Made by a program: the position numbers and the translations under genes. The notes under the pieces were generated by a model. That model did no database searches. It was not told the DNA's origin and was given only the letters and a program-made list of their open reading frames with translations. DNA of 64,000 bases from Cirrosporium novae-zelandiae (Eukaryota): positions 806,001 to 870,000 of the forward strand of contig JAPETS010000001.1 in assembly GCA_026023565.1 (NCBI GenBank). The letters are read 5' to 3'. This document shows positions 26,188-48,613 of this stretch, one piece after another. Numbering within the stretch: the stretch's first letter is position 1; each line of letters starts with the position of its first letter.

Positions 26188-27830
26188 TTAGAACATTTTT
26201 CTCTCCGCGAATGCAAAATCCTGGTCATCGGATTCCGAGGAGCCACTTGCTACACTGTTGAACCTGCTGAAGTCCACACTTCCATCCAATGCTGAAGGCG
26301 AGGTTGACTCATCACCGTCAGGAGGATTGCCGTTGGCTAGTTCGTCCTTGATTGCCGAGAGGTCGTTATTGTCGTCATTGCTGCTATCCTGTCGTTGTGA
26401 GACCGTGGAAATACGGCGATCCTTCCCACGGCCCTTGATCCCTTTATTACTATTCTTATACAGGGTAGCAAAATACTCCCATAGTTCCTTGTCCCGTGCT
26501 GATACTGTGTCACCTTCGCGCATGCTAGCAAACTTGAAAGTAAGGCGCTGCAGGGTCGCTGCGTGAAATTTGTTCTGATGCGACTATGATTGGGGTGTTA
26601 GAAGTATGGTTAGGGCTATTCACGGTCAGAAAAATGAAAGGTCACCTTAAGATTGCCCAATTGGGTGAACTGTTTCCCGCAATTATCAAGCTTGCAGGTG
26701 AAAGGTTTGAACTGCTCATGAACGATCCGATGAGCACGAACGTTACCGCGTTGTGCGAAGCGTTTGCCGCAGGCTTCGCAGGAATAAGGGCGTTCACCTG
26801 TGTGACGACGTTCATGGGTCTACCGCATGCTTATTAGCAGTAGGTTCCTTCTACCTTTAAGTTAAAGGGATATTTACCCTGAGATTTCCTAGCTGAGAAA
26901 ATCGCTGTCCACAAGAAGGCTCTCGACAGAGCTGAGAGTGAACGTAAATTACGTCAGTTCAATCTAGATCTCGGATATAGTCTTGAGCAGAAAATCGGCC
27001 AAACGTACAAATGGCTTATCTCCCGTATGCGCACGCATGTGAATCTCCAGGTGTGTCTTCTGATAGAAACTCTTCCCACAGCTGGTGAATGTACAATGAT
27101 GCTTCTTTCGACCTGTTTCGTTTTGCGGTTGCGGTTGCGGTTGCGATTGCGATTGTGATTGTGATTGTGATTGTGATTGTGATTGTGGTTGTGGTTGTGA
27201 TTGTGGTTGTGGTTGCGGTTGCGGTTGCGGTTGCGGTTGCGGTTGCGGTGGGACGGCGCTGTTTTGACTTGCTCGGCCATTTAGATCGAGAGAGGCAATA
27301 TGGGCTGGCGGTATCATCGTCATAGGCGGTGTATTCGTCGGTTGTTTCCTGGGTTTGGTTTTAGCTTGAATCGCTTTCATTAAAGTATCGACTTCAGTGC
27401 TAAACTGGGCTTCCTGAGGGATCGGCGGTTCTCCCAAGTCAGATACTTGGTGGTAAGTACCCTGTTGCACAGGGGCCGAGTGAACAGAAGAAAGGCTATC
27501 GTGTTTGATAGGCAGACTTCGGGACATTTGAACAGCTGCGTTCTTAGCCTCGGAGACCTGTGGAACGCCGCCCATGACGTTGGGGGGGTTGAAGAGAGCA
27601 GATGGTTCCACTAAGGACTGATAACCTGTGACGGCTGAATTGTACCAGCCTGCCATGTTGGGTGTATTCGCGAACATGAAGTTAGCTTTCGGGTAAGCTG
27701 TCGGGGGGAAGCCTAGTGGAATCTGCATCGGTGTGTTGGAGAGATAGGATATGCCCGGATCGAGGTCCAAAGCGGTCATTCTCCGCAAGGCGTAAGAGCT
27801 CATGGGGTGGTGAGCCATGTCGAAGGCCAT
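26188..27830 (-). CDS. AZF1: C2H2 zinc-finger transcription factor, Azf1-like (4 fingers), multi-exon; start codon approximate
   Basis: [31 protein letters not shown] fingers and the conserved tail [23 protein letters not shown]. Confidence 0.88.
27124..27249. repeat. Coding hexamer repeat (CCGCAA/CCACAA/TCACAA)n encoding a (PQ)n(SQ)n tract in Azf1
   Basis: About 21 hexamer units read directly; translates as PQPQ...SQSQ...PQPQ. Confidence 0.9.
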
Positions 27831-30132
27831 TGGGCTAACGACTTCCACCTCCGCTGGTGGGTTATTGATGTTTTGAACTGAGGTGTCTCGACGGTGGTGT
27901 TCGGAGAAAAAAAAGGTATTTCTGGAACTCGATAACTCCCAAGATCAAGAGTGCTCACGGTGACCGCAGCCGTGAGACGACCTGAGATTTGATGCCTGAC
28001 ATGTAAAACGTGACCGGTGCACTAGTGGAGAGGAAAAGGTGTTTGAGTGAGACGAGCAAAGCAATGAAGCAACAGCCAGTTGTCAATGAAGCAAAATATT
28101 CGGTGATCGAGCAGAAGCAAGCAGCAGTATATGAAAGGCGAATGAGACGATATCACAAAAAGGGTCAAGTCAGGGTGTTGCACAGGAAGTTAAAAGAAGC
28201 TCTCAAAGCTCAAATGTAAAAGCATGGATCCGAATATTGAGAGCGGCTTCCTGGCCCGTCCCGATGGTAGAGGAAGCCCGGATCCTTATACGCCACAAGA
28301 GGTCTTACGCCGGAGAAAAAAAATAAGATGAAGTAACGATGTTTTGTCGCGCCAAACAAACTTGAGTCCTGAAAGTCAGGGCCATTGCATAATATAACTC
28401 GAGGATCCAAGACAGATCAGGAAGGGCTTGGACACAGCGAGATCGAAGTCATGGTAGAGGCCGACTGTTTAGCTGCTCCAAGCAAGCAGAACGCTGTAAG
28501 AACCTGCAGCGGGTGGCAAAATGAAGGTCGATAGCCGGTTGGTCTTTGCAGATTCACCCAAAAGCTTTTTCGCCAATGGAGAGGTTCTAGCCCACCTGAG
28601 TTGAAATGTGAGAAAAGGGGACCCCCAATGGAGACGGGATGATGAGATATGTCTGGTACCGGTTGGCGAGCTTTTTGCATGGATTCTTTTGGGGGAGGGG
28701 AGGGGGGTATCAGGCTACGAAGCAAAAAAGGATTAACAGGAGTGAGAGAAAGACAGATCAAAGGGTAAGGTAGCTATGGGGGTCCAAGGTCTAAGGTCTT
28801 GGGTCGTTTTCTTAGTTTTCTGGCCTGTTCGGGTTTCGGGCACTGGTCCACAAGAGTAGCCAGTAAATGAGGCGTTGGCATTTTGGAACATCCAACCATC
28901 ATCAATCAACCCAACCAGTACCGTTCACCACTTTTTTGCGCCGGTCGAGTGCCAAAACGCCATGCCCGTGGGGGGGGGTCGGTTGGGGGAACAATATTTT
29001 GATCAAATGTATTGAGTATGTAATGAATGGTGGGGATCACACTCTCTCACCGGCCACTGCCCAACATGCTTATCGGATTTTGATAAGATGTCTGGATATT
29101 CCGAACTTTGATGTTCGTTGCTAATAGTGCTGGATAGTGTTAGAAACATTCAAGCCTTTAGTGCCCGAGGTCGACACATCTCCTCAGTGCACCCCCCCGC
29201 CTCCTCTCCCCCCTCCATGTCCCATGCCCCCATCGGAAGCTACCAGTCGATCATGATTTAATCAAGCAAAAGATCTTCACTACAAGAAAGAATTACAATT
29301 TCTGGGTAAATGATTTTGACTCTGGAGAGGAACGATACACCTCAAATCTTTGTCACTCGATCACTAGATTTTCCATCTTGAAGAACATGGAACACAAAAC
29401 TAGCACGACGAATCGCACTTGGACGCGGCATCCTAGTTCCAGGTGCAGCAGTGTACAGCTTGGCTTGACGAGGCGCCGACACAAGGACGATGGACCTTTA
29501 CCAAATGCAGCTAATATGACGATTATGGGGGGTCAATATGAACCGAAGATTAAGATCTCAGATCGTATCGAGTACATGGAGGATGTTCGATGAAGGAAAG
29601 TAGATGGGTCAGTCCGAAAGGTAGCTGAGTCTTCTTCTTCAACAATCATCATCAATAGCGGTAGCAGTAGCAACGTATCTAAATGTTCATAGCTTCTTGT
29701 CTGGGTCATCTGAACCTGGATGCTGGGGCCGAAGCCGAGGCAGGCGGGGATAACGGGGTCGCACAAGCTACGAGATTGTGAGGCTTCAAAGATGTCTAAG
29801 AGGCTTGAAAGTTTAGAGGCTACGAGGCAACCAGAGGCAATAAAAGGCAACGAGGCTGGCAAGTTGCCAGGATTAGGGGAGTTATTACATGTAGTCTTTA
29901 ATGCCGAATGCTGGTAAATCTTTATGCTTAGGCCCTTGGAACTGGAAGACGGATGAGGATTGACACTCACTCAGTAGCTGTCAAAAAAACATGCCCACGT
30001 GCCTCTAAAAACGGTTATGACTTCTTGAGTGAAGGGGTGTTTGTGTATAGTTGTATAGTTTTTGAATAGATGCAATTGAAAATGAAAAGGATATTATTTG
30101 GTCCAGAGATAAATAGTTAGGCAGCAATAAGG

Positions 30133-34167: not shown

Positions 34168-36557
34168 AACGGGTGAAAACCGCGGTAGACCACGATATTT
34201 ATTTGGGCGGCTTGACGACAACAGGTATTCTGGTGATAAATTTGTGCGCGCGCACGATGATGATGAGGAGAGGTAAAAGCTTCAGCGTGAAAGAGCCTCA
34301 GGAAGCTAAGGTGGTTTGACGAAACTCCGAGACACCGCGATTATTTGACGAGAGAGACTGGAGACTGTGGCTGAAGGAACTTCCTAGCTCGATGAGACCG
34401 AGACTAGTAGCCAGTAGCACCAGTAATAAACTCGTAGAGATGTGTGTCGAGGTTGCTTGGTCGATGGCGAAAGTTATGGAGTAGTAGAGTATAGGAGTAT
34501 TAAGTAGTGAGAAAGTAGCGATGAAGGATGAGAAGGAAGGACGAAGATGGCAGGAACAAGAAAAGCTTGTTGGCAAGCGAAGCGTGAGTAAGTGAGCACC
34601 CAGAAGCGATGGGAAAGATGCTCTGGCTCCTGCTGTCGATGTGCCTGCGGAGCCGTTAAGTTCTCGGCACAGCAGATGGAAAGATTGAGCGGATGATTCG
34701 CGTGATACTAAGCCAAGTCTGTAGAAGTAGCCTCGCTCTGGCTAGGACTGGAGTTTAATAAGATAAAAAATAAAAAAAATACACCGTGGAGGCCTAGTTC
34801 AGCTTATAGAGTTAACCTAAGGACCCCTGAATAATACTTTGATAGATAGTCGGATACTCAAGGAACTACCAGATAAACGCTTTTCTATTTTATTTTTTTT
34901 ATTTTACTGAAGTGCGTACTTATTATTATTATTTGGGTGAAACTAGAATAAAGTACCTCAATCAATGTACCGATTGTACCGATAACATGGGGGGGATGAG
35001 GGAGTGCTCGGGGCGTTTAAATCAACCAATCACTAATCAAAATGCCAGGGAAGGAAACCACTAGTTTGTTTTGTTGCTCAGGTTCAAGTTCAGCTGCTGC
35101 TTGCCGGGGTTGCTGCTTTTCTAGATTGAATCTAAAAGGTTTCTTCTAGGGGGCCAAGGGAAGCGGATAGCTACTAATAACCTGGTATGGAAGGTGATGG
35201 TGGAGCACTGGAGATAAATATTGTGATGCACAGGGCACTGAAGGGGGGGTTGTCAAAGGACTAATGTTTTAGTTGATGGATCAGTGGATCAATATTCTCT
35301 ATATTTCCGGTTCAAGGCTTTCTGTGGTATGATTTGGTGGTGTATAATACGATATGGTATGATGGAAGTGTTGATTCGTTGATTTGTTTACTTGTTTATT
35401 AATTAATTATGAATGATGGAATTATGTACTGTGTAGTTAAGGTAAATAATACTTACCTATGTAGGTAGGTCCATGTATGTAAGGACTTGGTAAAGTTGGA
35501 AGTTGGGCTGAATGGAGTTAGTGACTAAGGTAAGGTTTAAAGCACATGGGACAGGTCGGGCTTTTTGGCAGCAGAAGCCGTGGCATCCAAGTTCCTAAAC
35601 CCTACAGGACTACAATATGAGGTCCGTGCTTCAGCCGGTCGCCGTCGGATTAACCGGGATTATTCAAAGTTTGGCTTCGCTTCATCATTGAAACCACTGG
35701 AAGGAATGAAAATGTGGGTCTGGCCAATGTGGGATACCATGGTCTGTGCGATGCCCTAGTTACTTACCTACTGTCCAACCCAAAAGCGTCACAAACAACC
35801 CGAACAGCATAACTCGCAAGTCGCCGTTGATTTCTCTCTACTAGTTATCCATCCATTCACCAAATAATTAACACCTATACCCCTTCATGACTCGTTATAT
35901 AGCATTCATATTTACATCATCCCTCGTTGGTAAAAGGTACCAAGATACTATTTGTCAATCATATCCTTTTCTTTCCCTCGTGATAGCAGCCAGACCCAAG
36001 CCTTCCAATAAAACTAGCCCAAAATCATTTCATATCATTACTTGCTTTATCCATTATGACACTGGTGTTCTTCCGGAGAGTTTTTTACTACTCGTTACCC
36101 CACATTTCCAGCTGAATTGACTTGGATTCGGTCGAACTATATTTGATCTCCTCATAGGAGTGGAACGTTGAGGGGCCTCCCGGCTCTTTGGAACTGAAGA
36201 TACCTGTAGCGACTTGGAAATTTCATTCTACTGCCAGTAGTTTATTGTGCTACCAATGAAGAGGGTTGTTTGTATCAAGTGGATTTTTCGGTCAATGCAA
36301 TTGCATAGAGATCATCAAATATCCCTAATACACCAGCATCTTCTTTTCTCAGAGATGTCGTAGTAATCTATTGAAGACGGGGAACAACCAGTAAAGACTA
36401 CCTTCGACTGCTAAAAACTTGTGCATAGAAGGGCCTAGATCGTTAAAAAACTGCAGCAGCTCATCAGAATTATATCTGTACATACCTATATATAGGTGTA
36501 CATATTTTTATTACGACCCATAAACCCCCAAAAAAGTATCAAATTACCAGTTCTTGA

Positions 36558-36639
36558 TGCTCCCGACGGGACTCGAACCCGTGCCTCGAGCAGACCAGAT
36601 AAATGGGAAGCTCGAATTCTACCCCTGAACTACGGAAGC
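36558..36639 (-). tRNA. tRNA-Gly(CCC) with 11-nt canonical intron (36593-36603)
   Basis: GCTTCCG TA GTTC AGGGGTA GAAT T CGAGC TT CCC A [TTTATCTGGTC] T GCTCG AGGC ACGGG TTCGAGT CCCGT CGGGAGC A; all stems pair; T6 terminator (A6 at 36530-36535). Confidence 0.93.
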
Positions 36640-37948
36640 TACATTTATTGAATCATATGAACGTAATAGAAGTTTATGATCATTTGAACATTAGATGGTA
36701 AGCGAGGTCTACAGCAAAAGAACCAGTTGAAATTTTCCGAAAGATAGCAATTTATCAAGGTAGCTCTCTAGCCCTATTTTTTAGCCATATATCGTTATAG
36801 CTGTAAAAGTCATCCTACACTTTCAAAGGCTATTAAACCGAAATTTTAGTTTTCATATATGAATATTATCAACCATCATTACTACCAAAGCTGTGTTAAC
36901 TTCTACCAAGCCTTTCTTCTCTATAATTATATATACTCCATCTCTTTTCCCTATCTCTTAAGGCATGTGTTTTTTATCATGTGCCTTCTGTCTTTATATA
37001 ATCGATCGGGTTTAGCTAATCGGAACAGGACATGGCATATGATTTGTTAACTAGCTGGCGGGAATCACCATTGAAAGGAAGTAAATCAAAGATAGCTAAC
37101 ATCCTTATGAATGGCTGGCCAAAGCTTCTATCAAATGGCGCAGCCAATTTGTCTTGAGGAGAGCAGTCAACCACTAATTTTATCCGGCAGATGCTAGTCT
37201 AAATTTGCTACCGCAGAGTCCAGTTACCCACAATTGCTCGAGTAGAAACAGAAAAGTGCACAGACGCCATCGTTTGCATGATCTTCAGGATTAAATCGAA
37301 AGAGGTCAATGGGCTAATGCTCTTCACCGATGGCTATTCAGAGATTTCTCTCTCAAATATTCATTAACAATCCTGTTGAAACCTTTGGCTTCCAAGTCGA
37401 CTTAGCTAGGACTTTGTGTGGTCTCCAAGCATGCAGCTAGAGGGGTATAGAGCGCAGTTAAGAGAAAAGAAAAAGTACTGGCCTCCATATTAAAAACATT
37501 TTCCCTAAAATTGTTATATTTCTGCATGGGAGCATCAACAAAGTAACGATATTATCAGCTACTATAATAAGGTAACGGGAGATCTGAATCATCGTATTCT
37601 CTAACTTCTGAAATATTGAACTATGATATATCCTATCGGGTTCTACGTTGAAAAAGGTTGAAATCATGCCCACGTTGTATAAGAGAGCCCAAGAGGGTTG
37701 CTTCATCGTTTCACAAACCCCAAAGGATATTTGAAACATATCTTGTTCATGGGCTTGGGAATATATTTTATAATCCATACAAAAAGCAGACTTGCATGAG
37801 ATATTTAAGGAAATCCCAAGTGTCTAGACTATCCACTTTGTGTGAGGAAGAGGTCCTGGTGGTGGGCGTGGAGGCTTGAGACATAGAGCTCGTGAGCTCC
37901 TCTCAGGATGTGAGGTGCACTGGTAAGTCTTAGACCTCGTTCCTTATA

Positions 37949-38148
37949 TCCTAGACTGGTCACCAATGGCTATCGCTAGTAGGGGTGTTAATGTAGGGGG
38001 TCTGATTGACCCAATGACAAGATCTTGAGGCTCAATATGATTCAACAAAGAAGTTGATGCCTGAGTCTGCCTGAAAATAGTTATCTGACCTATCATAATC
38101 CTTACATAACATCCCTACTAGCGATAGCCATCGGTGGCCAGTCTAGGA
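37949..38148. mobile_element. MITE-like foldback element, about 200 bp, with about 49-bp terminal inverted repeats
   Basis: Left arm tcctagactggtcaccaatggctatcgctagtaggggtgttaatgtagg (37949-37997) versus reverse complement of right arm tcctagactggccaccgatggctatcgctagtagggatgttatgtaagg (38100-38148); non-coding interior. Confidence 0.7.
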
Positions 38149-39659
38149 GATTCTTTCGCAACTACATTTCCCAGCATACACAACTTCGAAGTGATTTATA
38201 TCTCTAGGTGGCTTGTATCTCTAGTGCGCCGTGGGACTTGATGATGATAATAATTCATTTTATTGTTCATATGTCACCTTCAGGTTATGGCGGACATACG
38301 CGTCGTGGGACTTAACATAGACAGAACTTGGCCATTTCCGTTTAGGAAGAGGTTACTGCATAAAATGCCAGAAACCAAGTAGAATTTATAGTTTTAATTG
38401 AACCAAAATAATCAAACAGCATATACTTCCAAACTTCGGCGGACTACTTAAGCATGACAAATAGCATACGACTCTCCTATTTACAGATGCACAACTCAGT
38501 AGGCTTACCGACTACGTTGGAGATACCGAACCACCCTCAAAAGCCATCGCTTGGGAGAGTACGGCAGAAACATTAAAAGTATAAAGGCTACAACAGGTGC
38601 TTTAGGCTTATGGTTTCTGACACTGATTTATTCATCGTTCCACGTTTTCCAACTCTGGAAACTTGAGTTCTTTTAGCAATGTGGGGTCAAATATTGTAGT
38701 TTCTTTTTACAAAGGTTAGACGGACTTGACTAGGGGTGCAATCATATAAATTATAAAGACCCAAACAACGAAATCTTTTCAGACAAGCTAAAGTAGGAAT
38801 GTGATGGTATTACGAAAAACTGAACTCTATTTTATCAAACTATGGCAAAAGCCCCTCCATCTTTCTGTGGGGGTATCTACGAACTAAAGACATATGTCCA
38901 GATCGGAGCCTTCCTCTGCCTTCCCAGTTAAGATCTGGTTTACCTGCTTTGCCACGGGATGCAGAGGATTTGAACAACTGGATCCATGAAACTAAGGAGC
39001 TATTTTACAATGTCGCACATAACATGCTGTTTTGTAGCCGGGAGGTTTAGTAGAAAGGAGAAGGCTTGAAAGAAGGATATGGTTTGGAAGAAGGAGGAGG
39101 TTTGTAACAAGAAGAAGGCAAAATCTAGGTTGATCGGCATTTCATGGCTGGCTGATCTAGTTGCTTCAAAGAAGGCGATGCGATACTGTAAGACCGTACA
39201 GGTAGCTATAAACTGTAGAGAGAGGTGTGCCATTTTTCAACGTTAAACCATTCATATTTTCATCCTTTCTTGCTAAAAGGGCTGGTAAAAGTATTGATTC
39301 TATTGGCATTGACGTCCCTAGCGCATGAAACGGGGCTGAGGAAACATAAATATCAAGAAAATGACTATTTGGTGTTTTGCTTGTCACAGCCTATCCGGTT
39401 TCACGCTTCCTCAATAAAATAAACATACTAATCTGGTAGCACATACCATTGGTCTCAATTCTTATTGTAGATAGTGATTGAAACATTTCCCATAAGTTCC
39501 TTGTATGGTATACTCCTCTCCTATTCAAAATGTACTGGACCTCTTAAAAAGACCAATATCTAGTGCTCTATCAGTCATACCCATTTGTAGGTATTCATCA
39601 CATATCTCAAATCCTAAAAGTATATTTCACAATATCCTCTTGTAATGTCATTGAAGTCG

Positions 39660-39821
39660 GGGGGATTGGCGCAATGGTAGCGCGTGGTAAGGGCATTGAA
39701 AAAAATACAAAATCCCGATTCACCGTTTCTAACAAATAACAGGCTCTCCTACTTTCGCTAGTTAATAGCAGAAAATATATTGGATAAGCCAAGGCTGTGG
39801 GTTCGAGTCCCATGTTCCTCG
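39660..39821 (+). tRNA. tRNA-Arg(CCU) interrupted by a 56-nt spliceosomal-type intron (39687-39742) in the anticodon stem and a 34-nt canonical intron (39752-39785)
   Basis: Mature 72 nt: GGGGGAT TG GCGC AATGGTA GCGC G TG|GCT CT CCT A|A AGCCA AGGCT GTGGG TTCGAGT CCCAT GTTCCTC G; anticodon stem TGGCT/AGCCA forms only after GT-AG removal; acceptor stem has three G.U pairs. Confidence 0.85.
39687..39742 (+). other. Spliceosomal-type (U2) intron inside tRNA-Arg(CCU), between bases 28 and 29
   Basis: Donor GTAAGG, branch point TTCTAAC (39727-39733), acceptor AACAG; size matches the window's mRNA introns. Confidence 0.82.
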
Positions 39822-39832
39822 GTTCATAATAA

Positions 39833-39838
39833 TTTTTT
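39833..39838 (+). terminator. Pol III terminator (T6) of tRNA-Arg
   Basis: TTTTTT starting 12 nt after the discriminator base. Confidence 0.7.
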
Positions 39839-40148
39839 GTGGGGTGGAGACGGAAATAGGAACTAGGGATTGGATAGATGGCGGAGAATAATATATCTAT
39901 ATCATTCCTTCATGCAGGTGGCAATCCTGACGAGTATGAGATAGGGAAGCCAATTGAAATAGAGATGGCTGACATTATTCACCGAATAATTAAGGCAAAG
40001 ATAAAAAACAAAGAAGAAAAACAATGCAATCGTGAAAGGATGAACAGTATTCATTAGCAATATATGCATCTATACACCATTAGCATCAAGGAACAATCTA
40101 TCCCTCCCAATACCTGCTAGAGTCCCACTTTTCTATTATGAAACACAA

Positions 40149-41239
40149 TTAAGCCCTTCTCCCTAGAAATTCTCTTACATTCTCATAGACCAAGAATGTA
40201 ACCCACGTACTAGGCAGCACTCTCACGAGACTTGGTCCCAAACCCTTATAAAATCCCCTCATACCCTCTATTCTCCAAACTTGTCCCAATACATCTAAGC
40301 TACCTTTATAGAGCGTGCTTGCATCGTAGATCTGCAATCTAGCTCGGACAACTTGGTATGGATATGTTATGGAGCTCGCGAAGATCTTGGAAACCGCCGA
40401 GATGAGGAGGGTATCTGTGTTGGTGAGAATTTGGGAGACCTCTACGGACGTGAGAGCCTTTCCATCAGAAGCATGAGTCAGGTGAACACGTGATCGCGCG
40501 CGCCATTCTTTCAAGCGTTCGTAGGCCATGAATTGAAAAGCACCATGACTGTTCCCGATCAAGCTGGGTGTTAAGCCTCTATAAAAGCCCCTCACTCCCT
40601 CTGCACGATACAATTGCTTTCCACCGTCCCACATGGAATGATAGGCCCCCGGCGCCAATGCACCAGTAGACAGCATTCTCGTTTTAAGCACCCATATTGG
40701 ATTCGTCAAGACTGTTGTAATCCCTCCTGCACAGGCAGAGGCTAGAAAGTATTGAGGGGCGGAAAGCGCACTGGTCCTGCTGGAATTTCGTTCTTCAACA
40801 TCCTCTCCATGGTTATTATTGGCATGTCGCAAGTTGTAATTAGATATCAGAGTCTTGCATTCGCCGTAGGAGAAGAAAAAAAATCCCCAAGCAACTGTGT
40901 TGCCAACCAGGCTCGGAACAAGACCACGATAGAATGCGAGAAGGTAGCCTTCATTAAGGAAAACAGACCGAGCGATTTGGAAGGCGGAACCAAGACGCGA
41001 GGAGGTGGAGGTGCGATTGACTATTCCAAAGGTTAATGATTTATAATGCGAGAGGGTATATCTTTACGGGAAAAGCACGACGATTGAGTAACTAGGGATA
41101 GGTCCTGGATAGAATGGATACCTTGTAAACGAGTCTTTATTATATCAAGGGGATGGACGACTAGAGTGGAGGCGACACCGGCGCTGACGCCAGCTATGGA
41201 TTCGGTGACCGCGGGGGAAAGCTCATAGTTATTGGGCAT
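40149..41239 (-). CDS. FLX1: Mitochondrial FAD/folate carrier (SLC25A32/Flx1-like), 1 intron
   Basis: Three carrier motifs HPLDIIKTRLQ, NPIWVLKTRM, YPYQVVRARLQ; GFYRGLTPSL; FMAYERLK. Confidence 0.8.
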
Positions 41240-42373
41240 GGACTCGGATGCTTGTTGAAGCCTAGAGTAGATAATGGGTGGTAGTGGCTAATATAAATAT
41301 ATAAAAAGGAACTGAATAAGTAGGGAGGCAAAAATACAAGTAGCAGTTTAAGTAATAGAGAACCTCTGAACGGCTACAAAAGGCTAACGCGACTAATTTA
41401 CTATAGGCCTCGACAACTATACCCAGGGAATATCATTATTTTCTGGGTATTTTACAGTCTCTTCAAAATGATAGAAGTACAGTGCACCGAATATATTTCA
41501 TCCGGATAACTCGTCACTAGACTTGGCGCCGTCCCATGCGCTCGACACTACTGCCCCCATAATCATGAATGGCAAACAAATAAGGCTCTGGACCTTATCC
41601 CGAATTTTCTGGATGTGTATTTTATTCGTTATTTTTAGATTTGAAATCGACGAGGATAAATGTATCGGTCGTAGGAATTCTCTATGCAAGAGGAGAGATC
41701 AATCTAGAATTGTTAGTTTTATTCTTCATAGCAGCAACAATCTTGTTAAACATCCTAGTACCTGATCAAAGGAGGCTTTGGTTCACTCCGAGTATATCCT
41801 GCACACAATTAGCAATGCATCTTAACTATAAATGTACAAAGTTTGCATACCAAGGTAGATAATGAGAGGCAGATATCCGCTGCTGCCGGTTAGTTCTTTG
41901 CGTTTCCGGAAGAGACATAGTAAATGTAATATCGAAATGCATACTAATGAACTGCAAATCTCGAGATATCAATTATCCTGGAGATGCGCTCCTGTATGTA
42001 GATCAGTAAACTAGAATTGAGGGCGTGAAATGGGAGGTTTAACCTTGGTCTCTTCTGATAGTTGGAATCGCATAATTGCTGATGGTTTTTTATGTGAAAG
42101 ACTATTGAATTCCCGATTCCAGAAAGCTCAGAGATTATCAACGGTAGTGAGGGAGAAAAGAAGGCGTAGCTCGTGAAACTGTTCGTCAATGAAGCTGCCC
42201 ACTCAAGTCTGGGGAGCTTCAAATATTTTGTCGGAGACGAACAAACAAAGCAAACAGCGTTTTCCAGTTATCTTCTGGTGACCTCAACACCAATAGCTTC
42301 TATAGCTTTCGGATCCAACACTTTACTTTAACACAACAATCGCTTTATACCATAATACACAATTCAATTCGTT

Positions 42374-43542
42374 ATGTCAGGCGCAAGGCACTGGTACGCT
42401 CTTTACACCCCCAATTCCAGAATGTTATCACTTAAATCAGTATTTTTAGGGAACAAGACAAGGAAGCAACCGTCTATATCGGCAACCTTGATGAACGAGT
42501 AACAGATAGCCTGGTATGGGAATTGATGCTTCAAGCCGGCCGAATCGTCAACGTCCATCTACCAAAAGACCGCGTCACACAAACCCATCAAGGTTATGGT
42601 TTTGTTGAGTTCATCAGTGAAGAAGATGCTGAGTATGCAGCTCGAATTATGAACCAAGTGAGGTTGTACGGAAAGCCAATCAGGGTGAACAAGGCAAGCG
42701 CGGATAAGCAGAAGACAGTGGAGGTGGGAGCAGAGTTGTTTATTGGGAATTTGGACCCGATGGTTACGGAACAGACACTCTATGATACATTTAGTCGGTT
42801 TGGGAGTCTAGTTTCTGCGCCAAAGGTATTTAATTATAAACCTTCAACGATTGGAAATAGGCAGACAGCTAACACGAATAAGATTGCAAGAGACGACGCG
42901 AATCTATCCAAGGGTTATGGCTTTGTATCTTACTCGAACTTCGAAGCTTCCGACGACGCTATCGCAAACATGAATGGGCAATACTTGATGAACAAAGAAA
43001 TATCAGTCCAGTACGCCTACAAGAAAGACGGAAAAGGAGAACGACACGGTGATGAAGCAGAAAGAATGTTGGCAGCGCAGGCAAGAAAACATAATGTTGC
43101 ACCAGCACCACAAATCGCTCCACCACTCACTGCAGCACCTCCACCTATGGCACCAACGCCCATGCTCGATGGTAATGTGGCTTCGGCAATGGCTACACCT
43201 CCAGCAGGTTTCATGAATGGGAGACCCCCAAATTTTCAGAACGTACCTCCACCACCACAACGGCCGACTGGGCCACCAACGTCCACTCTGGCAGCACCAC
43301 CATCAGGTCTGCCCGCAAGACCCCCCCCTTCACAGGCTGGATATGGAGGACCCCAGGGGTTTATACCTCCTGGATTTAATGCGCCACCACCCGCTGGATT
43401 TCCTCCTTCTACCGTGCCTTCAAACGGAATGGCACCACCGCCTGGATTCGGACCGCCGCCTGGATTTGCGGCCCCCCCTGGTGGTGTTCCACCAGGGCTA
43501 CCACCTGGGTTTCAGCCACAGGCGTATGGGAGGACGAGATGA
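42374..43542 (+). CDS. HSH49: Splicing factor 3B subunit 4 (Hsh49/SAP49), two RRMs plus Pro-rich tail, 2 introns
   Basis: [81 protein letters not shown]. Confidence 0.96.
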
Positions 43543-44223
43543 GCCGTGGACGAAATTTGAAATGAGTATAGAAGCATGACTAAAGAAGAGGAAATGCCTC
43601 TCCGATACTGGAATCAAGAGACTTGAAGCTGCAATAAGCAGGTGAGACTAAACTTGATATGTTTCTTGGATTTACAATGACTCTTTTACTGGTAGTTTTC
43701 GCGTGAGGAATCGTGGGTGGTTGAAAAGAGCTGGAGGTACCATTCACATCCTAGGATTGTGAGGTAGTTACAGGACAGGCTACCACACAATGAGAGTGTA
43801 TAGAAATTAAAGAAATATTGGGTATCAGCTACATGAAACAAATAGTTTCCAAACAGTAACTATCCCAAAACCTGTTCATGAAATTTTGGTGGAAAGTAAA
43901 ATTCGTTAATCAAAAACATTAAATATTCCATTTATGGCGTTTAGTTCCTTTGTTGAAAATACAGTCTCACCTAATTACATGTATCTATAAGTCGAATTCC
44001 AAAGGCTACTGATATTGCCCACCTAGCTTCTCCACCTTCCCGTACATTTCTCTTGTCTCCAAACCTCCGTTTCGACCACCATTCTCCGCACTCAAGCCGA
44101 ATAGCTGCACCCACTACTCCCAATGCCAATAAGCATATCTCTTCTACTTCATACATACCTAACCAATTAATCATAAAACCCACGTCCTGTATCCACCTCT
44201 CGATCCCTGTAACCGCGCAAATC

Positions 44224-45402
44224 ATGTCCTTCGAGACCCTCACCCCTCCATACAATGCTTCCGACCCAACAGCCCGCTTCCTTTCCTCCTCCTGTCTTGA
44301 CCTCCTCCTAATTGAGCTCGTCCCCCTCGCACAACGTCTCGCTGCCTCAGTCTCCAACCCAACTCCACCCCACGCGCCTAATAGTACCACATCCATAAAG
44401 AACAGACCAAGTAGCTCTGGCGCAGGTAGAGGTTCCAGCAGCGATGGAGTAAGAGGGAGTGGTGAAGGAACAAGAAGTTCTGCTGCTGTTGGAGGAGGCG
44501 CGGGGAGTACTGCGACGAGCGGGGTGAGTGGTGCAGGAGGATTGGATGAGGAGGACGAGCGGGAGCAGGTGTTTTTGAAATTGGAGGGATTGGGGTACAG
44601 GGTTGGGTTGGGGTTGGTTGAGAGGTGTGTATGCAGTAGTCTCTTTTTCTTCCACTGTGGCCTTTGGGATTGAAGAGAAGCGGAGGGAGACCATTTTGTC
44701 TCGCTCAACGTACGAGGTCTACATGCACGCGGGGGTGATTGATGAGTGCTCCAGAAGAGGAAGGACGTGCAGCTATAGACACATTTACAGTGCTACTCAT
44801 CTAAACTACATAGCTGACACGAACCTCTCGTTTTCACTTAGATTCTCTCGCGATCGCCCCCGCTTCACCGAACAACTCGATGTGATAAAATTTCTCTGCA
44901 AGGATCTCTGGACCTTGGTATTCAGGAAACAGATCGATAACTTAAAGACGAACCATCGGGTATGATATATACTATAATGCCCCTCTCCCCACGTCTCTAC
45001 CCATAGCCCCCGTCTCATTGTTACAGGGTGGCCAGCCCGATTGGCTAATATCTATATCTACAGGGCACCTATGTTCTCACTGACCACACATTCCGACCTT
45101 TCTCCCGCATGAGCCTCTCAAAACGCGAGGAAGCTGTTGCGAAAGCACAACCGGTATTGCCATTTCGTTCTTTATGCCTTACTATCCCACCCTCCTCTTT
45201 CCAAAGACGTCCCATACCCACAGACAAACCGGTACACTAATGTGTTTCTGCCCATTCACAGTATCTCTGGTTCCCCTGCGGCGTCATCCGTGGGGCTTTA
45301 GCAAGCATGGGAATAGAAGCACAGGTACAAGCAGAAACGCAAGAACTACCCGGGGCGACTTTTCAAATACGGACAATTACCACGGTTGGGCAAAAGTCAT
45401 GA
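44224..45402 (+). CDS. TRS33: TRAPP complex subunit Trs33 (Bet3 family), 3 introns
   Basis: [70 protein letters not shown]. Confidence 0.92.
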
Positions 45403-46041
45403 CCTTCACACGTTGGTAGGGGTGCAAAGAGCGAATAGATAACCATAATATATGACATGTTAGCGGCATTCTGGAGAGGCGTTGGGGTTGACTTGGAAGG
45501 GCAAGGGATGACAAAGGAAAATGGTACTAGACAGCCGAATGTCCAAAAGAGCAGAGAGGCGTCAGTGAATTGTATGTATGCTATGATATCAGCTTCTATA
45601 GGATACAGGCAGACGGATTTAACAATCAAAAAATGGACAAGCCTTGCAACGCAACAACTCCAAGCTCTGGGTCTCTCCACGCCCTGGGAGTCCTTGTCAA
45701 CCGACCCTGAATTCATTCCCAGCTCGCCATTGATCCGTCCATCGTTCCACCGAAAGCAATACAAAGCAGAGTACAATTCATCAAAGCCTAATACACAGAT
45801 AATGAATGTCGATTAGTCAAAGTTCATGGCTCATCATGCTTGAGTTTCATAAGTAAGTATCTCTCCTGCTTTCTATTCCACGGCATCATATAGTAATGGT
45901 GTGGTTTTGTTGAAATTGTTATGGTCGTCGTGATTTATTCAGATCAGACCCTTTGAGGGAGGCACATTTGTTTTAGAAGACGTTCGATCAAGATCAGGAC
46001 AGGAAATTAGCGCACACTAGAATAGGTGCGATGTCATTAAC

Positions 46042-47425
46042 TCACTTAGCAGCTGGGGGGTTCTGGGCAAATTGAACGCCCTTCTCAATATTTCCCTTTA
46101 GGCCTGGGTAGCAGGCGCTAAGCAGTTTCTTTTCGTAATCATTGGCATTTTTAACCATGTTGATTGCTTGCTCGACACCGTTGGGCTGGGAAATATTAAT
46201 ATGGGAACATAGGCATTAGTCGAAGGAATTAACATACACCGAGGACTACAGGGACCGAGAAGTACTCGCAGCCAGTGGTCTGTGCGATTGGCTTGCCTCC
46301 TGGAACGCCAGGAAGGTAGACAAACGAAGGTTCAACGATATTGGCTTCGCCTTGTGCAGCACTGATCAGCTTGGTAGCAAAGCTAAAATAGTTAGCATGT
46401 GAAAAATCGAATTTTGAGTTCAAGAGAAAGATACCGATAACCAGCCCAAGCCATTGAAAGAGTAGCTGATCCAGCTCCCTCCTTGGCCTTGACGACCTCG
46501 TCACCACCGAACTGTACACCTGTAAATGATATTATTAGCAACAAGTTTAAGAATTTTATGAGCGTAATTATTCTTACGGTTGACAAGGGCATCTAGCTTA
46601 TCGGCTGGAATATCGACTGGGGGCTTGGCTTGGCTGAATAGAGGCACGATTGTCTCCCCAGAGTGTCCACCAATTACTGGGACAATTGTTGCTGTTGGGT
46701 CACTTCTTCCAGCAATGTCGGCAACAAAGGTTTCAGCTCGGACGACATCTAAAGTTGTCACGCCAAAAACTTTCCGGGGATCATAAACACCAGCTTCTTT
46801 GAGAACCTCGGCAGCAACAGGTACAGTCGAGTTGACAGGATTGGATATTACAAGAACAAATGCCTTAGGACAGTGTTGGGCAACGCCGGTGATGAGAGTT
46901 CTAACAATTCCCGCATTGACTTTGAAGAGATCATCACGAGTCATTCCAGGTTTGCCTATGAGGGATATTAGCTACCCTTGCCGAGGTGCCGAGTAGAAGC
47001 AGCGGAGTATTCACGTGGAATGCCAGCAGGGATAACAACAATATCAGCACCAGTCAAGGCTTGCTTGAGGCCATCGTCTTTAGGAAGGAAGCCAACGATT
47101 TTCTAAATTGAGTCAGCCTATCCTGCTGATGAGAAATTTAGGAGGAAGCCCATTACCGCTGGAGATGAAATGTGAGAAAGATCAGCTGCAACGCCTGGGG
47201 TATTGACAACATCATATAGAGCAAGTTCATTGATTTGAGAGCAAGTCTTTAGAAGAAGGGACAATGGCTAAGGATAAGAATAATGTTAATAGGAGTTCTT
47301 GATTAAGAGGGAGTTTGGCTCAGAGATTTACCTGGCCAATGCCTCCAGCAGCACCGAGTACAGCTATCACGCCATTAGTGTCATTCAATGCTGGATAGAC
47401 ATGTTTAAAGCTTACCAGCTTTCAT
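46042..47425 (-). CDS. MDH: NAD-malate dehydrogenase without mitochondrial presequence (cytosolic/peroxisomal type), many short exons
   Basis: [81 protein letters not shown]. Confidence 0.94.
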
Positions 47426-48024
47426 TTTGATAAGTATAAGATGAAGGGAGAAGGTTTTTAAGAATAAAGAGTAGAAAACGGAGATTGAGTGGAGATGAGA
47501 GAGAAAGAAGAGAGATGAAGAACTTTACGAGAGAAGGAAATTGGGCGGAGGGGATGGGCGAGATCCTAATAGTCTGTAAATACTCCTACCTTACGATTAC
47601 CCCTCTACGTCAGCTCTCCTAACCCCGTGCACCTTGGAAGTCTCGAACCATAATATCAACATTTTCATCCCCATTAATTCAAGAACCACCACAAAATCGC
47701 GGGGTTTGTTTACTGGGACTTAAATGGGTCCATTTCCCCGGATGTAACTAAAATCTAGAATAAAATAGGCTTGATATCAACTAGATGCGTTCGTTGGAGA
47801 GAAAGCTTCACGAGCCAGCGATTAATTTTCGTGAGCTTCCGATTCGTACTCGCCAGTTTTAATGGTAAGGAACCTGTATTCTGTGTATTTGAAGCTATCC
47901 TCTCCTCAGAATCATCTCCGCTCTTCCGTCACCGGATATTCTAATATCCACCCCATTCATCATTGGTCATCCGATACCACGGCCAGTATATCCCAAACAT
48001 GTGAGACAGCACTCCAATAAAGAG

Positions 48025-48180
48025 GCTCCTATAGCTCAGTTGGTAGAGCGCAGCACTAGTACTACCAAAGTACTTCACCGGAGTAGCAATGCTGAGGTCT
48101 TCAGGTAAGAGTTTCTCGCCTCTTCATAGGTTTATTCAACCTTCTAACATTTGCAATTAGTTCAAATCTGAATGGGAGCA
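48025..48180 (+). tRNA. tRNA-Thr(AGU) with a 27-nt canonical intron (48062-48088) and a 56-nt spliceosomal-type intron (48105-48160) between G53 and T54
   Basis: Mature 73 nt: GCTCCTA TA GCTC AGTTGGTA GAGC G CAGCA CT AGT A|A TGCTG AGGTC TTCAG|TTCAAAT CTGAA TGGGAGC A; T-stem TTCAG/CTGAA with a 7-nt loop forms exactly after GT-AG removal. Confidence 0.9.
48105..48160 (+). other. Spliceosomal-type (U2) intron inside tRNA-Thr(AGU)
   Basis: CAG|GTAAGA donor, TTCTAAC branch point (48142-48148), TTAG acceptor. Confidence 0.87.
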
Positions 48181-48188
48181 TTCAATTA

Positions 48189-48193
48189 TTTTT
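48189..48193 (+). terminator. Pol III terminator (T5) of tRNA-Thr
   Basis: TTTTT starting 9 nt after the discriminator base. Confidence 0.65.
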
Positions 48194-48613
48194 GGCCTAT
48201 TAGACTTCCAATTTGCATTTATTGAGAGTGGCTTTGCCATCTCCCGGTTTTGTCCATCAGCAAGTTTGTTTATTTTCTATATAATTTCGACCGCTACATG
48301 CATGTGAATCCTTTGATTTCAGTTGTATCAAGTTATTTTTTTGGTAAGATATACACAGTAATAGACCTCCAGGTAAAAGTTCTCTGCATTTTCGAAAAGC
48401 CAAATATCTCGGACAGGTTATTCGGTACTTTCCACTGAGGGATTTTGTTTCGATTCTTGTTCTCATAGCTATCCCTTGAAGAGATATTTACCTCGGTATG
48501 TCTCTAAGCTAGCGATTCTTGCATGATGCCCGCTCGAGATAATCTCAGATCTAGCACTTCTTCGTGTCCCTCCATAACCGTACCCGAAGCCTGTTCGTAT
48601 CATTCCGAATTCC

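Follow-up and report, generated by a model that had tools for sequence, protein, structure and literature searches.

Putative spliceosomal introns in fungal tRNA genes alongside canonical tRNA introns

Spliceosomal introns in genes for structured non-coding RNAs have been described in several fungi. In the available part of one source, such introns are listed in U6, U1, U2, U5 and ribosomal RNA (rRNA) genes and not in transfer RNA (tRNA) genes (PMC5855946). Here, we analyzed two tRNA genes, tRNA-Arg(CCT) and tRNA-Thr(AGT), in a stretch of 64,000 nucleotides (nt) from Cirrosporium novae-zelandiae (GenBank assembly GCA_026023565.1, contig JAPETS010000001.1, positions 806,001 to 870,000 of the forward strand), which is hereafter called the window and is numbered from its first letter. 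Each of the two genes is interrupted by a short GT-AG insert with a fungal branch motif. In these respects the genes resemble U6 of fission yeast and other fungi, U1, U2 and U5 of Rhodotorula and the rRNA of ascomycetes, where structured non-coding RNAs likewise harbour short GT-AG introns that have a fungal branch site, as far as the consulted portion of that source goes; the U6 gene is read by RNA polymerase III (Pol III), and a reverse-splicing origin has been proposed for introns of this kind (PMC5855946). Unlike the small nuclear RNAs, however, a tRNA stands outside the spliceosome and has a splicing pathway of its own, and in the present case both kinds of intron occur in each gene. We consider it likely that these are working nuclear tRNA genes, each with a tRNA intron at position 37/38 and a U2-type GT-AG intron at a non-canonical place. 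Introns of the latter type in structured non-coding RNA genes are known; what appears to be new is their presence in tRNA genes that keep their own tRNA intron.

A second known system consists of the tRNA genes of archaea and of Cyanidioschyzon merolae that are disrupted by introns of the bulge-helix-bulge (BHB) type. These introns also lie at sites other than 37/38, number up to three in a gene and cause the genes to be missed by gene finders; however, they adopt a BHB fold and are cut by the tRNA endonuclease (PMC3978253, available part), whereas the inserts described here have no BHB and conserve spliceosomal signals. In textbooks and current reviews, nuclear tRNA introns, which the tRNA endonuclease cuts at 37/38, and the spliceosomal introns of RNA polymerase II transcripts count as systems without relation to each other, and in the accessible text of a paper from 2025, the three nuclear intron types are treated as unrelated (PMC12530127). 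Similarly, the word stem 'spliceosom' has 0 occurrences in the available text of a broad review of tRNA introns (PMC4090602), and a study of the direct repeats that border introns holds, in its available part, nothing on spliceosomal introns of tRNA genes (PMC11782384). A full-text search, with subscription journals and supplements outside its reach, found no literature on spliceosomal introns in tRNA genes. Kohrer, Vogel and Domdey reportedly described in the EMBO J in 1990 an engineered yeast tRNA gene with the actin intron, which was spliced by the mRNA pathway, a result that would show such a route to be feasible. That construct was artificial and reportedly carried its intron at 37/38, whereas the introns considered here are natural and lie at 4/5, 28/29 and 53/54.

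The window contains three tRNA genes, Gly(CCC), Arg(CCT) and Thr(AGT), whose coordinates and parts are given in Table 1. The Gly gene has a canonical intron of 11 nt as its sole intron and a T6 run 23 nt downstream. For the Arg gene, we excised positions 39687-39742 by script and submitted the joined sequence to ARAGORN, which called Arg(CCT) with a 34-nt intron at 37/38. After removal of this intron as well, the sequence of 72 nt formed a clean cloverleaf and was again called Arg(CCT). The fully spliced Thr sequence, 73 nt in length, also formed a clean cloverleaf, and ARAGORN called Thr(AGT) with the canonical intron set at 37/38. The adenosine of the branch motif lies 10 nt from the 3' end of the Arg insert and 13 nt from that of the Thr insert. 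The Thr case is represented by a single sequence, for which the perfect restoration of the tRNA and the intron signals together suggest a spliceosomal intron. The initial annotation of the window had reported that two of its three tRNA genes are split at 28/29 and 53/54 and that both inserts are exactly 56 nt long with GTAAG donors and TTCTAAC branch points. The first statement proved accurate, as the excisions restore the tRNAs, and we could confirm the second in the sequence.

Table 1. tRNA genes of the window, with their introns and terminator-like runs
Feature	Position	Strand	Basis or signals
tRNA-Gly(CCC), comparison gene of ordinary type	36558-36639	-	Rfam 55.3 bits, ARAGORN
tRNA-Arg(CCT), three exons (39660-39686, 39743-39751, 39786-39821)	39660-39821	+	ARAGORN after excision
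Spliceosomal-type intron of Arg(CCT), 56 nt, tRNA position 28/29 (anticodon stem)	39687-39742	+	GTAAGG, TTCTAAC, CAG
Canonical tRNA intron of Arg(CCT), 34 nt, position 37/38	39752-39785	+	ARAGORN on excised sequence
T6 run, Pol III terminator-like, 12 nt past discriminator base of Arg(CCT)	39833-39838	+	sequence
tRNA-Thr(AGT), three exons (48025-48061, 48089-48104, 48161-48180)	48025-48180	+	ARAGORN on spliced sequence
Canonical tRNA intron of Thr(AGT), 27 nt, position 37/38	48062-48088	+	spliced-sequence call
Spliceosomal-type intron of Thr(AGT), 56 nt, position 53/54 (T stem/T loop)	48105-48160	+	GTAAGA, TTCTAAC, TAG
T5 run, Pol III terminator-like, 9 nt past discriminator base of Thr(AGT)	48189-48193	+	sequence

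Before excision, the two genes were poorly visible to standard tools. In its default mode, ARAGORN called none of the three window tRNA genes (0/3). On the unspliced DNA, Rfam gave no match at 39660-39821 and a weak one of 35.6 bits at 48025-48180(+), in which the segment takes the form of a long insertion with a false T stem and two non-standard pairs. Several other identities were considered and rejected. For the unspliced Arg gene ARAGORN proposed Ser(GGA), interrupted by a 90-nt intron, and for the Thr gene a selenocysteine (SeC) tRNA, both at the cost of mismatched stems or a non-canonical intron place. After excision of the segment, it also offered Ala(AGC) for the Thr gene, with an intron at 32/33; this placement was discarded because the 3:70 pair is T-A, not the G:U of Ala, and because 37/38 is the eukaryotic position.

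To find relatives of the Arg gene, we searched metagenome contigs with a pattern in which GT, 36-66 unconstrained bases and AG separate the D-arm from the anticodon loop and in which no branch motif was imposed. The pattern matched three metagenome contigs (L001, L002 and L003), all of which proved to be Arg(CCT) genes with an intron at 28/29; in the prokaryote genome collection it gave 0 matches. The 28/29 introns of L001, L002 and L003 are 56, 47 and 55 nt long, with the donors GTATGT, GTCAGT and GTCAGT, respectively; all end in AG, and the adenosine of a CTAAC branch motif lies 13, 11 and 12 nt from the intron end. Canonical introns at 37/38 are also present in the three genes (37, 25 and 28 nt). 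Only the exons match those of the window; the intron interiors and the gene flanks are unrelated, and there is no synteny. L003 contains a second intron, which lies at position 4/5 (L003 1082-1130, minus strand), measures 49 nt and reads GTACGT...TTCTAAC...CAG. Its excision joined a first exon of 4 nt and restored the acceptor stem exactly. Rfam and default ARAGORN found no tRNA in any of the three contigs, whereas ARAGORN called all of the spliced sequences, those of the window included, as tRNAs (5/5).

We then compared the signals of the six introns. Their donors are GTAAGG, GTAAGA, GTATGT, GTCAGT, GTACGT and GTCAGT, preceded by an exon G in five of the six cases, and all six contain the branch motif CTAAC, with its adenosine 10-13 nt from the 3' end, and a terminal AG, all of these signals being oriented like the tRNA. 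The parts that are conserved among the inserts are three spliceosomal signals at fungal distances, and the rest has drifted. To estimate how often such segments arise by chance, we counted those of 40-70 nt with GTNNG, CTAAC at 8-16 nt from the end and AG on both strands of the window, and obtained 23 among 3,964,590 (start, length) pairs, a frequency of 5.8e-6. We also performed 836 excisions of GT..CTRAY..AG segments from the window and L001-L003 and applied ARAGORN to each product; a tRNA across the junction was found solely at the known loci. For comparison with ordinary introns, 14 likely messenger RNA (mRNA) introns of the window were selected from 45 candidates by a heuristic (score >=3, length <=90 nt). 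The optimal CTAAC occurs in all six tRNA-gene introns versus 7 of these 14, which is only a hint, as the scoring favoured CTAAC.

Other properties that had been put forward in the initial annotation could be examined in the same set. It had held that the interiors of the two window introns are unrelated, and this was borne out, since 357 of 500 interior shuffles reached the alignment score of the actual interiors. The shared length of 56 nt, which it used as an argument, amounts to no more than chance, being a typical intron length: three of the six tRNA-gene introns have it in a range of 47-56 nt, and the likely mRNA introns of the window span 49-83 nt with a median of about 61. A lack of T4 runs had been taken as a sign of selection against Pol III terminators. 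Both window introns do lack them (the longest T run is 3 in each), but as a sign of selection the observation fails, because T4 is likewise absent in 9 of the 14 likely mRNA introns (and T5 in 14 of 14), and two T4 runs occur in the L001 intron and one in the first L003 intron. The suspicion that standard finders would miss or mis-call such genes was well founded: default ARAGORN called 0 genes, Rfam missed the four Arg genes, and the Thr gene reached 35.6 bits. A reach beyond this genome had also been suggested, and the 28/29 introns of the Arg(CCT) genes in L001-L003, together with the third site at 4/5 in L003, agree with it. Finally, the introns had been proposed to be separate gains. This holds for the different sites; the Arg site, however, is common to four organisms, and the intron there is probably old and inherited. 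Such an origin is the more likely one because the intron is found in four organisms whose tRNAs differ at up to 20 of 72 positions, although repeated insertion at a favoured site may be an alternative.

To judge whether the genes are under selection, we aligned the four spliced Arg sequences, which differ from each other at 2 to 20 of 72 positions. Standard pairing was observed in all 84 stem cells (84/84; 21 pairs in each of the four tRNAs), and 8 of the 21 pairs had changed on both sides in a compensatory manner, including 3 pairs of the anticodon stem, which is the stem interrupted by the intron. This covariation is hard to reconcile with pseudogene status and suggests that in each lineage the functional RNA would be the insert-free form. 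It bears directly on the possibility that the loci are dead tRNA pseudogenes whose inserts are merely intron-like. The silence of standard finders at these genes would fit that explanation, but we regard it as very unlikely: besides the pairing kept by four diverged Arg genes, the donor, CTAAC and AG persist in six inserts despite their differing interiors, terminator runs are kept at all five genes, and segments with the intron signals are rare by chance, at the frequency given above. A different question is which machinery would remove the inserts. A BHB has a central helix of 4 bp between two 3-nt bulges, which places both cut sites, and this helix forms in a fixed register between the 3' end of the upstream exon and the 3' end of the intron. 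When we applied this register, in a derivation of our own from the known geometry of yeast pre-tRNA, just 1-2 of the 4 central-helix pairs formed in each of the six introns. The intron sites (28/29 in four genes, 53/54 and 4/5) are not the canonical position of the tRNA splicing endonuclease (TSEN), and every gene has a separate intron at 37/38; because the positions are not 37/38, the usual site-finding of the eukaryotic endonuclease would be inapplicable. BHB introns are known to occupy non-canonical positions, and a tRNA gene may contain several of them, according to the available part of the source (PMC3978253), so that removal by the endonuclease, as in Cyanidioschyzon or archaea, might be imagined; yet besides the poor pairing, a BHB intron would have no reason to keep GT, CTAAC at 10-13 nt and AG, and we judge this explanation highly improbable. 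Recent copying of a mobile intron family (introner-like elements), whether spliced or not, appears scarcely credible. Insertion at three different sites in tRNA genes and the length of 56 nt common to three of six inserts are what it could explain, whereas the window introns align no better than their shuffles, no further copy of either was found within the 64-kb window, and the Arg site is common to four organisms with unrelated intron interiors. The inserts are probably real spliceosomal introns in functional genes, a reading to which the conserved signals and the restored, covarying tRNAs both point.

Which polymerase transcribes the genes is a further point on which evidence is divided. 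Runs of at least five Ts (T5+) occur within 20 nt past the discriminator base in all five split genes (offsets 12, 2, 13, 2 and 9), compared with 2.6% of the 20-nt windows in this DNA, and no T5+ run occurs inside the precursor of any of the five genes. The A and B box regions of the window genes look intact in the DNA when read by eye; in the Thr gene, the terminal AG of the intron and the next exon form a contiguous B-box-like sequence in the DNA. By eye, the sequence AGTATAT was also noted ahead of both split genes in the window (39620-39630 and 47985-47995), some 35-40 nt before the mature 5' end, and it may be a TATA-like element that places the Pol III start. On the other side stand several observations that weigh against reading these loci as working, Pol III-transcribed tRNA genes, and L003 provides the first of them. 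Its 4/5 intron ends 3 nt before the A box. The usual start, directed by TFIIIC and placed by the A box, would fall inside this intron, and the first exon would be lost. L003 is therefore a better fit to RNA polymerase II (Pol II) or to an unusual upstream start. This leads to the possibility that the introns are spliceosomal and the genes functional, but that the precursors are Pol II transcripts from an upstream start, from which RNase P and RNase Z excise the tRNA. With its 4/5 intron, L003 needs transcription to begin more than 56 nt ahead of the A box, which initiation by Pol III in its ordinary, A-box-guided form would not provide, and spliceosomal introns normally reside in Pol II transcripts, in the accessible text of the source (PMC12530127). 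However, the T5+ runs at all five genes, far above their background frequency, would have no role in Pol II transcription, and none lies inside a precursor; and fission-yeast U6, a spliced Pol III transcript, offers a precedent showing that splicing of a Pol III transcript is possible, in the consulted portion of the paper (PMC5855946). We thus consider Pol II precursors unlikely and, provided that the introns are real, moderately favour Pol III over Pol II on the basis of these sequence features.

The remaining points of this kind concern the distribution of the introns and the need for the genes. In X2, a distant organism sequenced in one study with the probable source of this DNA, an Arg(CCT)-like gene lacks the 28/29 intron and contains a canonical intron of 16 nt as its only intron, and the 28/29 intron is consequently not universal. 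A single exon pattern for orthologues of the Thr gene with the 53/54 intron gave 0 matches in the metagenome contigs, a result that its anchors may explain. Even unspliced, the Thr gene exceeds the tRNA threshold of Rfam, as the end of its intron mimics four of five T-stem pairs: pairing between the five terminal intron bases and the 3' strand of the T stem is possible at 4/5 positions (region 48156-48180 of the window). In addition, AGG codons are in principle readable by another Arg tRNA, and loss of an Arg(CCT) gene might be tolerated. As a separate observation on X2, its contigs corresponding to window 39685-39786 carry Arg(CCT)- and Arg(TCT)-like genes with common D and T arms and short canonical introns, and without an intron at 28/29.

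If the genes are functional and transcribed as we favour, the path from gene to tRNA could run as follows. The precursor would most likely be produced by Pol III, with the internal A and B boxes as its promoter and the downstream T5-T6 run as its end. In this precursor the cloverleaf would be blocked, as the insert divides the anticodon stem in Arg and the T arm in Thr. The spliceosome would recognise GUAAG, UUCUAAC and AG, and the 56-nt intron would leave as a lariat in the nucleus. The joined RNA could then fold like a normal intron-containing pre-tRNA, from which the tRNA splicing endonuclease and ligase would take out the intron at 37/38 before RNase P, RNase Z and CCA addition complete the tRNA. 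The splicing itself, the order of its steps and the polymerase are what we infer from the sequence.

A more far-reaching proposal, which we advance tentatively and hold to be possible rather than probable, is that in a whole fungal clade at least one tRNA, Arg-CCU, for which there may be a single gene, can be made only if the spliceosome acts on a Pol III transcript before tRNA splicing, and that at least three sites in tRNA genes (4/5, 28/29 and 53/54) have taken up such introns. Were this true, standard annotation would overlook an entire hidden class of tRNA genes, and the genes would form a natural bridge between intron systems that have been thought separate. If conserved spliceosomal introns do occur in tRNA genes, the spliceosome would service tRNA precursors in nature, splicing capacity would bear on how much of a tRNA is supplied, and fungal tRNA gene counts would be incomplete because standard finders skip such genes. 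The genes would also provide a clean natural test of whether splicing needs coupling to Pol II, as well as fresh cases of intron gain in structured RNAs.

The surroundings of the genes are those of fungal-looking nuclear DNA, in which protein genes contain short GT-AG introns; ordinary eukaryotic genes of the window include those for a mitochondrial carrier, an RRM protein and malate dehydrogenase. No open reading frame (ORF) of >=80 amino acids overlaps the Arg or Thr gene on the same strand, and the neighbouring genes are on the minus strand, an arrangement that speaks for Pol III. The run that is the probable source of this DNA (X1) spans the Arg and Thr loci without a joint (80% likeness, window 36400-48300); the two other runs compared, X2 and X3, come from distant organisms. 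Contig 6 of X1, among the pieces listed, passes unbroken through the Arg gene (80% likeness), which hints weakly that the Arg 3' exon has no second, identical copy. Between the Gly and Arg genes, at window 37946-38151, lies an element of 206 bp with terminal inverted repeats of 45 nt that are 91% complementary. Its coverage by contigs of the probable source run reaches about 35x the single-copy depth, and in appearance the element is a miniature inverted-repeat transposable element of high copy number. Farther away, an ORF at window 26964-27944(-) contains a long dipeptide repeat of proline/glutamine and serine/glutamine that adjoins a C2H2 zinc-finger-like end.

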